This document shows positions 13,870-18,378 of a stretch of DNA of 64,000 nt, one piece after another; within the stretch, counting starts at the first letter, position 1, and the number at the start of each line of letters is the position of its first letter. The notes under the pieces were generated by a model. That model did no database searches and had not been told where the DNA came from. It saw only the letters and a list, made by a program, of their open reading frames with translations. The stretch spans positions 25,502 to 89,501 of the forward strand of contig CAYFOG010000002.1 in the NCBI GenBank assembly GCA_964344705.1. Direction: 5' to 3'. The translations under genes were made by a program, and so were the position numbers. The DNA comes from Candidatus Woesearchaeota archaeon (GTDB taxonomy: Archaea; Nanobdellota; Nanobdellia; UBA10117; ARS21).

Positions 13870-14949
13870 TTACTTCCCGATAATTTTTACATTTCCGGAG
13901 AAGACTTTATTGTTACCTTGAGTTAATTTTGCTTGAGGTAATTGAAGATTTCCAACAACGTGCATTGAGGACTTTACTTGATATGTTAGAATCATTTCTT
14001 CTTTTGGTGCCAGTGTGTCAAATTTCCAAGATAATTTTGTTCCATTCTTTGTGTTAACTAGAGAGTTTGGAATAACTGTTCCAAAATCCCTTACTAGTTT
14101 CAGAGGTTTTGGAATCATATCTTCGACTTTGACGTTCTTCATTTCGGTGTTTGTTCTGTTTTTAATCGAGACATTGACCATAATTGTATCTGCGCCTTGC
14201 CGAAGTTCTTTGACTACCGAAAATCTGTTCAAATAGTTTGTAATGAATAAGAATACTGCAAGAAGCAATAATATTCCTCCAATCAAAACTGGATAATATG
14301 AAACCGAATATGCGATAGTTATAGTTTCGCCAGGTTCTAAATCAATTGGCCAAGAAACTTTGGTTTCATCACCATATGCTTCTGAGGAATATTCTAGATT
14401 TGAATTTAGCAAAGCAATGTCAAATGAGGAGAATATATCTGTCCACTCATCTGAATAAAGTGTATTTCCAGTGTTTGTGATTTCAAAGGAATAGCTCTTT
14501 CCAAATAAACCTTCTTTAACATCTTCAGTTACAGAAATTTCTCGAATCATACGCGTGTCTTCATGAACTTCAGTTATGGTGACATGAACGTAATCATGAT
14601 TTGTCACGTCAGGATTTGTTGTTGAAGCAACTTTGAGATAAACTGCGTATTTTCCTTCATTAATTGTAACTGGTGGAGCAAGTCTTACTGAGATTTCTCT
14701 CTGTCCCTTTGCTGGAACTTCAACAAAGTGATCTGAGAAAGTTACGTCCCACTTTGACTGCGGTGCGCTCAATCTTAAAGTATCTCGATGATTTTGATTG
14801 TTCATCAAAGTTATTTTGAATGTTGCTGCTTCGTTTGATGAAATTTCTGAGTCAATAGATTCTGCATCCATCAAAATTGGTGAAAGAGCAAATGAGCTTG
14901 TAAGTGTTACTAAAAGTAATGTAACTAACAATAATCCCTTACGCGCCAC
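13870..14949 (-). CDS. Predicted secreted/membrane-anchored protein (359 aa) with a beta-rich extracellular domain
   Basis: N-terminal signal peptide MARKGLLLVTLLLVTLTSSFALS. Internal TM LIGGILLLLAVFLFITNYL. Ser/Thr/Asn-rich, strand-like segments on both sides. Confidence 0.55.
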   Translation of the reverse strand: MARKGLLLVTLLLVTLTSSFALSPILMDAESIDSEISSNEAATFKITLMNNQNHRDTLRLSAPQSKWDVTFSDHFVEVPAKGQREISVRLAPPVTINEGKYAVYLKVASTTNPDVTNHDYVHVTITEVHEDTRMIREISVTEDVKEGLFGKSYSFEITNTGNTLYSDEWTDIFSSFDIALLNSNLEYSSEAYGDETKVSWPIDLEPGETITIAYSVSYYPVLIGGILLLLAVFLFITNYLNRFSVVKELRQGADTIMVNVSIKNRTNTEMKNVKVEDMIPKPLKLVRDFGTVIPNSLVNTKNGTKLSWKFDTLAPKEEMILTYQVKSSMHVVGNLQLPQAKLTQGNNKVFSGNVKIIGK

Positions 14950-15040
14950 GCTTTTTTTACGTTGCTATCTAATATAAAGATTTCCCAGAGTAAGCTGAAA
15001 TGTTTTTCAGCAGACTGACGGAATTCTCATTATTATATTA

Positions 15041-15970
15041 GTGATGCGTTGTAATCTCATGGACTTAGTGATACCAAGCTGGCTATCTGCACTCCGAGGA
15101 ATAGGTGTAGTTTGCAACATTTACAATATTGCAAAAGCTAGCGACGATGTTATTGAGGAGCTAGAGGATAAAATGAAATTGAACTGGGGCGATAGACGCA
15201 GAGCAAAGAAATTGATAAAAAGGCACTATAAAGGCCGTAAAGCAGAAGTGAGATCTGAGCGGAAAGACGTTATTGGGATGATGAAGCTCGGAGATTCGAC
15301 TTGGAAAGACTTTATGTACAGAAATGAACCAAGCAGTTTTGCAGTTGGAGATCCTAACTTGAATGAGCCTGTTTATTCTGGACTTGATAGGGTTATCTCC
15401 GATGAACCTGATAGATCTGAATTGATTCATGAAACTGCCAGAGGTATTCAAGAAATGAGAATTCGGATTGAAAGACATAACAAACTTTTGACAAAATGTG
15501 AAAATGAGATTGGAGAATACATCGGATCCAATGAGCGAGTTGTAAAACGATATATTGCAGAGAAAGTTAAAATTGAGAAATCAAGAGAAGACCATGAACT
15601 GCACTTAGTCACTTTAGCTATGTGTCTTGGAAGAATGCAAATTGAAGGACATGACAGAGAAAGATTTGACTTAACTCCAGTATATAACAATGCGACAAAA
15701 GTTTTGAAATCGATGGGAGTATTGCTAGACTACAGCGCACATAGAAATGCGTTGGGTGCATTGAATGAACATGAAGCTAGTTTAGAAATTGAACGAGAAA
15801 TTGACAAAACAACGATGGATGCAAGTATGTATGACTCTGATGTTGAGGATATATATGACCAATATTTGACTGAACATCGTGCAAAAGACACAGCAAAAGC
15901 ATCGGCAATAAAAAAGAACTCAGATTTAGAAAATCTGGTAAGCCAAGCAAAAGCACAAGCAGGAGTATAA
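15041..15970 (+). CDS. Coiled-coil protein, possibly ESCRT-III/Snf7-like (CdvB-like); start uncertain, alternatives at 15059 and 15173
   Basis: Helical heptad pattern IQEMRIRIERHNKLLTKCENEI ... VKRYIAEKVKIEKSREDHELHLVTLAMCLGRMQIEGHDRE ... ATKVLKSMG ... LNEHEASLEIEREIDKT, with an acidic C-terminus. This resembles the Snf7 alpha1-alpha5 layout. Immediately upstream of a Vps4-like AAA ATPase. Confidence 0.4.
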   Translation: MMRCNLMDLVIPSWLSALRGIGVVCNIYNIAKASDDVIEELEDKMKLNWGDRRRAKKLIKRHYKGRKAEVRSERKDVIGMMKLGDSTWKDFMYRNEPSSFAVGDPNLNEPVYSGLDRVISDEPDRSELIHETARGIQEMRIRIERHNKLLTKCENEIGEYIGSNERVVKRYIAEKVKIEKSREDHELHLVTLAMCLGRMQIEGHDRERFDLTPVYNNATKVLKSMGVLLDYSAHRNALGALNEHEASLEIEREIDKTTMDASMYDSDVEDIYDQYLTEHRAKDTAKASAIKKNSDLENLVSQAKAQAGV

Positions 15971-17143
15971 ATGGCTAGTCCCTATTTATCCTCTCTTCAA
16001 TCAGCAAGAAAGCATATGGAATCGGGAGATTCCATTGCTGCTGCTGAATCTTACTTGATTGCATATGAGTTGAAACTTAAATCAGGTGATATTGATGATC
16101 TGGAATTTATTGAAAAACAAATAAGAACATTAGTTCCAGAATTGCCTGTCCCGGCTGTTGAAACTCCTGTGACTCCTTCTAAAAAAACTAGAAGGGGCTC
16201 AGGAATTTCTGATGTCGATTATGCTTCTGAGTTTATTCCTGAAGAACATGACGGTGATTTTTCTCGAGTTGCAGGAATGGATGATTTGAAAGCTAAGTTG
16301 ACTGAAAATGTTATTTGGCCTCTGATTTATCCTGATGTAATGGGAGAGTTGGCAGGGCTTGAGAGTAATAGTGTTTTGCTTTATGGGCCTCCAGGTTGTG
16401 GAAAGACATTCATCGCAAAGAGTTTAGCGGGCGAGGCTCAAAATAAGAGCGGACGGGATGTTAATTTCTACGTCGCAGGTGGAGCAAATCTTGAACACAG
16501 ATATGTTGGAGATAACTCTAGATTAATTAATGCCTTCTTTGAAACTTTGAACCACAATGAACCGAGTATTGGTTTTATTGATGAGATTGAAGGGTTGGCT
16601 GGGAAGAGAACAAATTCTGGACAAATTGCTCGGAAAGTTGTCAATTCTCTTTTAGAGGGTTGGAATGTTCTAGATGGAACTCAAGCAATGGTTATTGCTG
16701 CAAGTAATTTGCCTTGGGAAATTGATGCTGCAATTGTCAGAAGTGGAAGATTAGAGGAAAAGATATTTGTTCCTGCTCCCGACTTTGAATCACGAAAGGC
16801 TACGTTTGATTTGTATTCCAATTTGAAAGATGATGAAATTTCTACTTTGGCTGGAATGACTGAGGGGTATTCTTCAAGCGCAATTCGTAAAATCTGCGTT
16901 CGAGGAGGAAGAAATGCAGCCAGAGAATATTTGAACGGAGACAGAAAACAAAAAGTTGTATTGCTTGATGACGTGATTCGGGCAGTTTCAGAAATACCAA
17001 GTGACTTGAAAGTTTGGGCAGACCAAACTGTTGATGCAATGCTTGCGGGTGTTGGCGAAGGAATTAGACTGAGAAAAAGTGTTAGTGAAGAATATTTGCC
17101 AATGCTTGAAGAGGCTTTAAGAATTCGAGAGGTGTTGTCATGA
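15971..17143 (+). CDS. AAA+ ATPase, probably the Vps4/CdvC-like (meiotic clade) cell-division ATPase
   Basis: Walker A LLYGPPGCGKT. Walker B IGFIDEIE. Second region of homology VIAASNLPWEIDAAIVRSGRLEEKIFVPAPD. About 130-aa helical N-terminal region that could be MIT-like. Start ATG overlaps the upstream stop (TAAATGG). Confidence 0.65.
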   Translation: MASPYLSSLQSARKHMESGDSIAAAESYLIAYELKLKSGDIDDLEFIEKQIRTLVPELPVPAVETPVTPSKKTRRGSGISDVDYASEFIPEEHDGDFSRVAGMDDLKAKLTENVIWPLIYPDVMGELAGLESNSVLLYGPPGCGKTFIAKSLAGEAQNKSGRDVNFYVAGGANLEHRYVGDNSRLINAFFETLNHNEPSIGFIDEIEGLAGKRTNSGQIARKVVNSLLEGWNVLDGTQAMVIAASNLPWEIDAAIVRSGRLEEKIFVPAPDFESRKATFDLYSNLKDDEISTLAGMTEGYSSSAIRKICVRGGRNAAREYLNGDRKQKVVLLDDVIRAVSEIPSDLKVWADQTVDAMLAGVGEGIRLRKSVSEEYLPMLEEALRIREVLS

Positions 17144-17261
17144 AGATATTCTTTAATGGAGATATAAACTTGGATGAAGAAGATTGGAGTAAAATATATA
17201 CTCGAATTCAGGCTTTTTTTGATAAGCAAAAAATTGGTGAGATTTATTTTGAAGTTGAACC

Positions 17262-18083
17262 TTAAATTACTTTTCTAACTTTAAATTTAGCACCAGTAAT
17301 TTCTTCTGGTTCCGAGAAAACTTCAACTACTGAGTATCTCCCGTCTAATATTGCACCGGCATTCAGATTTAATCTATCATGTTTGTAGTTTTGTTCAAGA
17401 AGCGTTTCACCCTTTCTTAGATCAACAGCTCTTCCGCCAGCTTCGTGAATATGACCATTTATACTTACTCGAATATCTTCGTCAAAAATCTTTGATTTTA
17501 TTGATTTGTGTCCGCAATTACTCGGAATTGGAACTAAGCCCTTGCCCTTAATGAAAGTGTAATCTGATTTGTCAATTCCGTGTTCAGTTTCACATTTTGG
17601 AGGGTCGTGAGTAAATAGCACGCGTCTTGAGCCAGGAATTAAATCGTCAAAAGTGTAATTTGTTGGAAAGGATCCAGATAGTTGAGGATTGTTGTTATGA
17701 TTGGATTGGACTCCTGACCCTGCGTATAATTCTAGTTCTATATCTTCTAATTTGTAAATATGTTGTTTGTTTGTTTCAAGTAATGTCTTGAAATTATCAT
17801 ATTTTGATGCCACTGCCTGAGATAATTCATTGAAGAACGGAGGTTCATGGCTTCCCGGAATACATAATGTAGGAATATTAAGTTCAGCAATTTTTACAAG
17901 TGTATGGAAATTTATCTTTAACAAATCTTCCATACTGCCAATATCATATGGTGAATAATCACCAGTCAAAACTATGGTATCAATATTATCTTTCTCATTT
18001 GATAGCTCAGTGATGGCGCTTTCTAGATTAGTAAGATGTCCGTGGATATCACTTAATATTGCAATATTCTTTGCTGTTTCCAT
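17262..18083 (-). CDS. Metallophosphoesterase (calcineurin-like phosphoesterase)
   Basis: Start moved to the internal Met at 18083 (METAKNIAILSDIHGH) to avoid overlap with the L37e gene. Motifs DIHG, GDY, GSHEPP (GNHE-like), HDPP and GHIHE match the MPP family. Confidence 0.7.
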   Translation of the reverse strand: METAKNIAILSDIHGHLTNLESAITELSNEKDNIDTIVLTGDYSPYDIGSMEDLLKINFHTLVKIAELNIPTLCIPGSHEPPFFNELSQAVASKYDNFKTLLETNKQHIYKLEDIELELYAGSGVQSNHNNNPQLSGSFPTNYTFDDLIPGSRRVLFTHDPPKCETEHGIDKSDYTFIKGKGLVPIPSNCGHKSIKSKIFDEDIRVSINGHIHEAGGRAVDLRKGETLLEQNYKHDRLNLNAGAILDGRYSVVEVFSEPEEITGAKFKVRKVI

Positions 18084-18117
18084 AATTTTGACTAATTTAA
18101 GTGTATTAAAAGTGCTT

Positions 18118-18378
18118 CTATTTGTTATGCTTCCGCTTTGCGCTTGAAGCTCTTCCTCGAACTGATTTTGGAGCAAGTTTTGAAAGATTTACTCCTTTCA
18201 TGAAACCGAATCGTCTTTTAGATTGCCATGAAAATCTTCGAATGCCTTTAGTTGCACCGAATCCGCAAGATGCGCATTCTTTGTGTTGTGCATGATAAGT
18301 GTGTTGACCACAACGTCTACAGATTACGTGTGTCTTTTTTCCCGATCGTTTACCTTTGGATGGTGTTCCTTTTGACAT
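18118..18378 (-). CDS. rpl37e: Ribosomal protein L37e (with basic C-terminal extension)
   Basis: [40 protein letters not shown] carries the C4 zinc ribbon and the KTHxxCRRCG signature of L37e. Confidence 0.8.

Follow-up and report, generated by a model that had tools for sequence, protein, structure and literature searches.

The 64,000-nucleotide (nt) stretch of DNA analysed here (the window; all coordinates are positions in it) carries what is most likely a three-gene operon, consisting of gene A, gene B and the small gene C, which encodes 41 amino acids (aa). Judging by profile comparisons and a structural model, A most likely represents a pared-down ESCRT-III filament protein that has diverged strongly, and the sequence of B reads as that of a euryarchaeal-type Vps4-like ATPase whose MIT-like head is shortened. 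We regard it as probable that the locus is a reduced, fast-evolving euryarchaeal 'Main'-kind ESCRT-III/Vps4-type membrane-remodelling operon of one marine DPANN genus, and are more confident of a narrower statement, namely the descent of A and B from an ESCRT-III/Vps4-type pair. The general idea of the first-pass annotation of this DNA, an ESCRT-III-like protein coupled to a Vps4-like AAA ATPase, therefore holds. The host genome (G000; 0.54 Mb, 31 contigs, ~91% complete) is assigned to a DPANN archaeon, as homologues of the window proteins are labelled Candidatus Nanoarchaeia or Woesearchaeota.

Kinship of protein A and homology of the operon

A is tied to ESCRT-III by a collinear profile match, a modelled helical hairpin and the ESCRT-III slot that it occupies in the operon. 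The ESCRT-III reference alignments were built from Pfam-positive Asgard genes (37 Asgard sequences), with euryarchaeal and DPANN sequences added later. In hhalign comparisons, the A family matched the Asgard-only ESCRT-III profile at 78-79% (P 2e-5) and the broad profile at 83-92% (P 9e-6 to 6e-7; 158-180 collinear columns), residues 113-297 of A being aligned against ESCRT-III positions 15-216. Two DPANN sequences in the broad profile had been chosen partly via their match to the A profile, and circularity was checked by removing both: the match was still 83% for the A family and 87% for a distant A-like subfamily (loci L029, L027 and L031), which on its own matched ESCRT-III at 87-94%. Reversed profiles gave at most 0.7%, the best of 30 column shuffles scored 15.9 versus 50.8 for the real alignment, and six decoy coiled-coil proteins and a family of ~410-aa proteins described below all stayed under 1%. 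A profile of only four euryarchaeal ESCRT-III sequences gave no signal with the A family (0.3%).

Snf7/ESCRT-III homology of A, suggested earlier as a check, was thus found in family profile comparisons with clean controls. A Pfam search, suggested for the same purpose, detected no Snf7: the model (PF03357) had no match to A at E<=0.1, and none in the whole genome either. This test is insensitive here, since the Snf7 model misses all six ESCRT-III-like proteins of the window's order (see below) and gives 17 bits for one euryarchaeal ESCRT-III. The host genome holds no other ESCRT-III-like gene besides A.

In the AlphaFold2 (AF2) model of A, helices 119-154 and 159-195 (predicted local distance difference test score, pLDDT, 75-89) form the hairpin and are followed by helices 206-218, 225-252 and 260-301, the last of which is modelled with confidence, like the hairpin. 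About 30 of the top 50 Foldseek matches of this model in the PDB belonged to the ESCRT-III superfamily (Vipp1, CdvB2, CHMP, Snf7, IST1).

Related loci show which position A holds in its operon. The nearest outgroups of B are P0018 (the G123 protein, 57% identical to B), P0019 (41%) and P0022. Upstream of the ATPase gene, the outgroup loci encode a protein of ~260 aa (L029, L031), one of ~410 aa and a 189-299-aa coiled-coil protein. They are positionally orthologous to the window locus, because L029 keeps the metallophosphoesterase-L37e-LSm-S8e flank found in the window. The 275-aa coiled-coil protein of L029 is homologous to residues 43-303 of A (31 bits), and that of G123 matches at E 8.5e-66. 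With the profile of the ~410-aa protein, matches were obtained to the proteins of ~400-430 aa encoded next to euryarchaeal Vps4-like genes (E 1e-9 to 1e-6) and to their counterparts in another five genomes of the order. These proteins combine a helical N-terminal region with a winged-helix (wH)-like C-terminus, an architecture that fits the description of arCOG09748 in 'Main' ESCRT systems. G123/L027, L029, L031 and the five genomes of the order have the same gene order, namely arCOG09748-like gene, coiled-coil protein gene, ATPase gene. The six small proteins encoded just upstream of the ATPase in the five genomes match canonical ESCRT-III at hhalign 97% (P 8e-11), none of them being recognised by Pfam Snf7, and an ESCRT-III gene also lies directly upstream of each of four euryarchaeal Vps4-like genes. 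As clear ESCRT-III homologues hold this slot in orthologous operons, A takes the ESCRT-III position in an operon that is homologous to known ESCRT loci.

The loci of the five genomes (L234-L238, from G129, G140, G143, G145 and G128, respectively) consist of an arCOG09748-like gene, one or two ESCRT-III-like genes of ~200 aa and a Vps4-like AAA gene. No homologue of the arCOG09748-like (~410-aa) protein was found in the window's genome, this partner having been lost; derivation of the N-terminal 42 residues of A from its N-terminus was considered and is not supported (hmmsearch E 0.17). Immediately downstream of the Vps4-like gene, a second AAA gene is present in L027 (5363-6289; in G123, L233 2126-3052) and in L236 (6009-7298, G143). 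The second AAA protein of G123 comprises 308 aa and lacks an N-terminal domain; the gene has been lost in the window's genus. The first gene of the wider cluster encodes the ~260-aa protein (L031 2407-3180, L029 2028-2810), for which a weak SPFH/Band_7 match (E 7e-4) was obtained in L031. SPFH proteins accompany PspA and some archaeal ESCRT loci.

The A family itself is very small. Only 13-14 homologues were found among 5.8 billion proteins, one of them added by a second word-index search with a broader alignment, and a family-profile search of 1.84 billion representatives returned only the family itself and two weak coiled-coil matches. Among 39 genomes of the order, A is confined to the window's genus (one genus of 21). 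Residues 1-31 are almost invariant in the family alignment (invariant columns W8...K26). Residues 1-27, with a mean hydrophobicity of 0.45 and Kyte-Doolittle (KD) values of 1.0-1.5, lie under the transmembrane threshold and are a candidate membrane anchor. Of the basic-N/acidic-C pattern described in the first-pass annotation, the acidic C-terminal third is present; the basic patch (residues 41-60), on the other hand, lies ahead of the hairpin core. The C-terminal helix (invariant residues D289, L290, E291, L293, V294 and A297) is a candidate MIM1-like motif for ATPase docking, and similar acidic-Leu C-termini occur in the L029/L027/L031 proteins and in the ESCRT-III-like proteins of the order.

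Motifs, domains and placement of the ATPase

B matches the generic AAA module only (Pfam AAA, 3e-29). The Walker A motif GPPGCGKT (residues 139-146) and the second region of homology (SRH), which reads SNLPWEIDAAIVRSGR, are real, as reported earlier. The Walker B motif, FIDEIE, had been called unusual and divergent; it is normal, with D204 and E205 intact. The pore loop RYVG (177-180; Y178-V179-G180), the sensor-1 residue N246 and the arginine fingers R257 and R260 are present as well, and all these catalytic elements are invariant in the family alignment. By its motifs B would be a functional classical AAA unfoldase.

The AF2 model of B (pLDDT 85) shows, in order, three N-terminal helices, a disordered linker (63-80), the AAA module with its lid, and a C-terminal helical region. 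Instead of the N-terminal helical region of ~130 aa that had been predicted, there is a three-helix unit of ~55 residues (helices 4-18, 21-38 and a short third helix 44-54; pLDDT 83-91), followed by the linker and the AAA module. A MIT domain had also been thought possible for this region. Pfam found neither MIT nor Vps4_C in B; the three helices resemble a shortened MIT domain, and the N-domain of the B family, which matches weakly on its own (see below), matched the MIT profile at 95% when aligned together with its relatives (hhalign). Among the relatives of B, weak Pfam MIT matches were obtained for P0022 (8.5e-6) and P0086. Euryarchaeal and DPANN versions escape the curated MIT and Snf7 models: in 81 Methanobacteriota genomes Pfam MIT gave no match at 1e-4, though at least four of them hold full-length Vps4-like genes beside ESCRT-III. 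The C-terminal extension with its tryptophan is common to B and to its euryarchaeal Vps4-like and TPR-AAA relatives.

The phylogenetic position of B was determined from 97 AAA cores (IQ-TREE, LG+F+G4), with references from four Asgard genomes and named genome contigs; representatives were checked by NCBIfam or by diagnostic motifs and genomic context. PAN, CDC48-D1 and CDC48-D2 diverge first and lie outside the clade of B. CdvC and Asgard Vps4 form a clade (99.4/100) that does not include B. Its sister, joined to it at 94/97, is a clade (96.4/92) that holds the B family together with P0022, the four euryarchaeal Vps4-like ATPases and other DPANN ATPases. In a FastTree analysis with the ATPases of the window's own order, the B family was joined with G128, G129, G140 and P0022 (support 0.95). 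NCBIfam scores of B were all far under the cut-offs (PAN 137 bits, CDC48 135 bits, CdvC 114.5 bits against the NF041006 cut-off of 650), and PDB phmmer and Foldseek searches could not separate p97, Rix7, Vps4 and spastin (all E~1e-16). The SRH of B contains AIVRSGRLEEKIF ('RSGR', the classic R-x-G-R) and not the Vps4-type RRF: the Asgard and CdvC references have RRRFEKRIY or IRRFQKRI, whereas the euryarchaeal Vps4-like ATPases have RRPGRF, like B.

The description of B as a meiotic-clade-like ATPase of CdvC/Vps4 type is not supported, in view of its position outside the CdvC/Vps4 clade, its R-x-G-R motif and its CdvC score. Grouping with PAN or CDC48, named earlier as a refuting outcome, was not observed. 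B is neither a CdvC orthologue nor a derivative of PAN or CDC48. It fits Vps4 in the broad sense of Makarova et al. (2024), which is defined by a MIT domain or by ESCRT genes nearby: it has a single AAA module, an ESCRT-III-type neighbour and a grouping with ESCRT-associated ATPases.

Gene structure of the locus and the 41-residue gene

The three open reading frames (ORFs) and their junctions, as first described, were confirmed in the sequence (Table 1). The TAA stop of A (15968-15970) directly abuts the ATG of B (TAA/ATG), and B and the 41-aa ORF share the sequence ATGA, in which the TGA stop of the former overlaps the start codon of the latter. A had been given as a 309-aa protein; this ORF is real, and its start is more likely ATG 15059, giving 303 aa, than GTG 15041, because all homologues of A (13/13) begin with MDLV and a TATA-like box is located ~25 nt upstream of this ATG. 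The box suggests a leaderless transcript for the operon. The gene trio with the same order and junctions was found in independent contigs from metagenomes as well as in another three species of the genus, and is therefore not a chance arrangement. Its flanks are conserved in the independent contigs as well: a divergently oriented 359-aa membrane protein gene on one side, and metallophosphoesterase, L37e, LSm, S8e and dCTP deaminase genes on the other. The GC content of the module is the same as that of its surroundings.

Table 1. Coordinates of the genes, protein parts and putative promoter element of the operon in the window
Feature	Position	Strand	Description
TATA-like box TTATTATATTA	15030..15040	+	~25 nt upstream of ATG 15059; read from sequence, putative role
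ORF A as first called	15041-15970	+	GTG start 15041, 309 aa
Gene A	15059..15970	+	303 aa; orphan, probably a very divergent ESCRT-III-like protein
N-terminal hydrophobic/amphipathic segment of A, residues 1-27	15059..15139	+	nearly invariant; candidate membrane anchor
Basic patch of A, residues 41-60, net charge +8	15179..15238	+	common to the 275-aa L029 homologue
ESCRT-III-like core of A, residues ~117-297	15407..15949	+	hairpin H119-154/H159-195 and three further helices
C-terminal helix of A (KK.SDLENLVS.A.A.GV)	15914..15967	+	conserved; candidate MIM1-like motif for ATPase docking
Gene B	15971..17143	+	390 aa; single-module classical AAA ATPase, euryarchaeal-type Vps4-like clade
N-terminal three-helix unit of B, residues 1-55	15971..16135	+	shortened MIT-like domain
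AAA module and lid of B	16256..17005	+	Pfam AAA; catalytic motifs invariant
C-terminal helical extension of B, invariant W349	17006..17140	+	in place of canonical Vps4_C
Gene C	17140..17265	+	41 aa; protein-coding

The 41-aa ORF had been reported to begin inside the stop codon of B, and it has the properties of a real gene under purifying selection. All 41 codons and the ATGA overlap are kept in three diverged versions, whose pairwise ratios of non-synonymous to synonymous substitution rates (dN/dS) are 0.12-0.15; changes fall mostly in third codon positions (7/2/15, 6/1/11 and 3/1/11 for positions one, two and three). The ORF is present in all three other species of the genus that have B. No homologue of the protein was found outside the genus, and no Pfam or NCBIfam match was obtained; its residue pattern suggests a strand-helix-strand arrangement. 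A distant relative (L018 3617-3740) has TTG in place of the ATG and a 1-nt deletion in a T-run, downstream of which the codons still read KDEKLGEFYFEIE in the old frame. This version reflects either recent decay or an assembly error.

In the 359-aa protein (13870-14949, minus strand), a signal peptide is followed by two Ig-like domains separated by a central transmembrane helix; the first is of CARDB/DUF11 type, and the second gives a Pfam Top6b_C/DUF11 match at residues 240-328. Its gene is transcribed divergently from A and adjoins it in every locus of the genus-level clade; a functional tie to the module is possible. A calcineurin-like metallophosphoesterase gene (17262-18176, minus strand) converges with the 41-aa ORF, overlapping it by 4 nt. 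It holds the same place in L020-L026 and L029, and is absent from L015, L016 and L018.

Cellular role, alternatives and known systems

The host genome encodes two FtsZ proteins, CDC48 and the alpha and beta subunits of the 20S proteasome, and lacks PAN; CDC48 and B are its only classical AAA ATPases. B-like genes occur in ~10 of the 39 genomes of the order and in none of the sister genus. In G124, a genome of the same genus (91% complete), the module has been deleted, no B gene is present elsewhere, and all that is left is the beginning of A (~50 codons) and the end of the 41-aa ORF (~29 codons). There, at L218 (G124:C22) 98-335, a 54-aa remnant of A (MMRCNLMDLVTPTW...GWRQRRKLE*) abuts the remnant of the 41-aa ORF, and the L37e, LSm, S8e and dCTP deaminase genes follow. 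Patchy in the order and deleted in G124, the module is dispensable and therefore unlikely to be a divisome. Given the two FtsZ genes and the frequent loss among relatives, an accessory membrane-remodelling function, and not cytokinesis, is most likely the best fit.

In the mechanism that we propose, the hydrophobic N-terminus and the basic patch of A, the ESCRT-III-like subunit, would recruit it to the membrane, where its helical-hairpin core would polymerise. B, as a Vps4-like hexameric unfoldase, would bind the C-terminal helix of A through its shortened MIT-like head, in a MIT-MIM contact. Its pore loop and ATPase site would then extract A subunits, so that the polymer is disassembled and thereby remodelled or recycled. 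The 41-aa protein would be co-produced with B by translational coupling and is probably a small cofactor. The accessory membrane task could be the formation of vesicles or contact sites, or membrane repair. More speculatively, this could be the smallest ESCRT machine so far, one in which the added N-terminal helix and basic patch of A replace the lost arCOG09748-like targeting partner, and which, with the cut-down MIT head of B and a 41-residue cofactor, builds or severs membrane contacts or vesicles in a probably host-dependent cell; we put this forward only tentatively.

Several results weigh against an ESCRT-III/Vps4-type origin of the pair. The curated libraries have no match to A (Pfam, NCBIfam, PDB phmmer). 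The genus-level A family alone matches ESCRT-III at 51-76% (hhalign), and A as a single sequence at 3.8% (P 0.011). Among the 397 ORFs of the genome, ranked by single-sequence hhalign, A took third place and had by far the longest alignment, a result that is suggestive only. Comparison of the A family with the six ESCRT-III-like proteins of its own order gave no signal (2%). The overall pLDDT of the A model is poor (60.6), and its Foldseek E-values are 0.08-0.4. For B, the N-domain of the family alone matches MIT weakly (10%, P 0.003, in the right register), the clade of B also holds many bacterial TPR-AAA ATPases of unknown function, and the trees include neither katanin, spastin, FtsH and Msp1 nor all of the Vps4 proteins of Makarova et al.

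Some of these results would be expected if A were an unrelated lineage-specific coiled-coil substrate, adaptor or scaffold, and B a quality-control unfoldase, possibly feeding the 20S proteasome, the likeness to ESCRT-III being convergent. The lack of recognition of A by curated libraries and its weak single-sequence hhalign signal agree with this explanation, as do the presence of 20S alpha and beta subunits without PAN, which leaves CDC48 and B as the only classical AAA ATPases, and the NCBIfam ranking of B, with PAN and CDC48 slightly over CdvC. We nevertheless consider it unlikely. The similarity between A and ESCRT-III is collinear over ~160-180 columns and is lost in the controls (reversed, shuffled and decoy), the operon shows homology to loci with clear ESCRT-III and arCOG09748-like genes, and B is separated from PAN with full support, ends in ...EVLS without the C-terminal HbYX tyrosine, and has neither an OB nor a coiled-coil PAN N-domain. 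The bacterial relatives of B raise another alternative, namely that the module is a cassette of the conflict, defence or mobile-element kind, a role suspected for many bacterial TPR-AAA ATPases in this broad clade. That clade includes many TPR-, kinase- or ankyrin-fused bacterial AAA proteins, the module is patchily distributed across the order, and B has a weak match to the anti-phage ATPase IteA (79 bits versus a 510-bit cut-off). The position of the module between genes for ribosomal proteins, LSm and dCTP deaminase, which is stable across the genus and as far as L029 (ATPase 41% identical), argues otherwise, as do its unchanged GC content, the lack of integrase, repeats or nuclease nearby, and partner genes that are those of euryarchaeal ESCRT loci. 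Of the explanations considered, this one is the least probable.

The first-pass annotation assigned the pair to the Cdv division machinery of Thaumarchaeota and Crenarchaeota. The order of the genes is indeed that of CdvB and CdvC, the gene for a coiled-coil protein preceding that for a single-module AAA ATPase whose N-domain is helical, and of the archaeal AAA families the CdvC/Vps4 lineage is the one closest to B. Nevertheless, B lies outside the CdvC and Asgard Vps4 clade (99.4/100), scores 114.5 bits against the 650-bit CdvC cut-off and has an RSGR and not an RRF motif in its SRH. A lacks a wH domain, and the adjacent genes are not CdvA-like (a genome-wide CdvA search was not made). Moreover, two FtsZ genes are present, and most genomes of the order lack the module, which has been deleted in a sister species within the genus. 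CdvB/CdvC cytokinesis machinery is therefore very improbable and is largely refuted already. The preferred reading remains an ESCRT-III/Vps4-type operon with an accessory membrane function.

DPANN archaea are stated or implied in the literature to be without ESCRT-III/Cdv proteins (PMC7619361, PMC8970359, PMC7617429): according to a 2025 review all major archaeal lineages except DPANN have ESCRT-III, a 2022 paper places Cdv proteins in three of the four archaeal superphyla, and a 2024 review assigns DPANN division to FtsZ. DPANN taxa are also unmentioned in the 2024 ESCRT survey (PMC10936438). Clear ESCRT-III homologues, invisible to Pfam, are encoded beside Vps4-like ATPases in several genomes of one DPANN order (hhalign 97%). 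If the interpretation of the window locus is true, ESCRT would occur in all major archaeal lineages, which bears on whether it already existed in the last common ancestor of archaea. It would also provide a minimal two- or three-protein version of ESCRT, attractive for reconstitution, and point to membrane remodelling in tiny symbiotic archaea, about whose cell biology hardly anything is known. Should the locus be the smallest ESCRT machine, DPANN archaea would both possess ESCRT and have reshaped it.

Among known systems, the bacterial ESCRT-III branch, PspA/Vipp1, resembles A in its layout of an N-terminal membrane-binding helix and a hairpin, and Vipp1 is among the best Foldseek matches of A; the related cluster L031 has an SPFH-like gene, as do some PspA loci. 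Unlike PspA/Vipp1, A has no PspA_IM30 Pfam match, and its partner is a Vps4-like ATPase and not PspF. With CdvB/CdvC of Thermoproteota and ESCRT-III/Vps4 of Asgard archaea and eukaryotes, the locus shares the combination, here predicted from the genes, of a helical-hairpin polymer and an AAA unfoldase with an N-terminal three-helix unit. As in CdvC/Vps4, the ATPase motifs, pore loop and arginine fingers of B are intact, and its clade is sister to CdvC and Vps4; it differs from them in lying outside their clade and in its lack of an RRF-type SRH, of Pfam MIT and Vps4_C matches and of a CdvC score near the cut-off (114/650 bits). Unlike CdvB/ESCRT-III, A has neither a Snf7 Pfam match nor a wH domain, and its gene is found without CdvA nearby, in a genome that has FtsZ.

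The closest resemblance is to the euryarchaeal 'Main'-clade ESCRT systems, which consist of Vps4, ESCRT-III, arCOG09748 and arCOG08177 (Makarova et al., 2024, mBio, PMC10936438). As in these systems, an ESCRT-III-type gene is located directly upstream of a gene for a single-module Vps4-like ATPase, B has the R(P/S)GR type of SRH and a W-containing C-terminal extension like 'Main' Vps4, and the relatives L027/G123, L029, L031 and L234-L237 carry a ~400-aa helical/wH partner. In contrast to them, the window's genome has lost the arCOG09748-like gene, A is an orphan with a 116-residue N-terminal extension (hydrophobic helix and basic patch), the MIT-like head of B is shortened, a 41-aa gene has been added, and the host is a DPANN archaeon. 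The locus of the window thus appears as an extreme, reduced and genus-specific derivative of the DPANN ESCRT-like operon.

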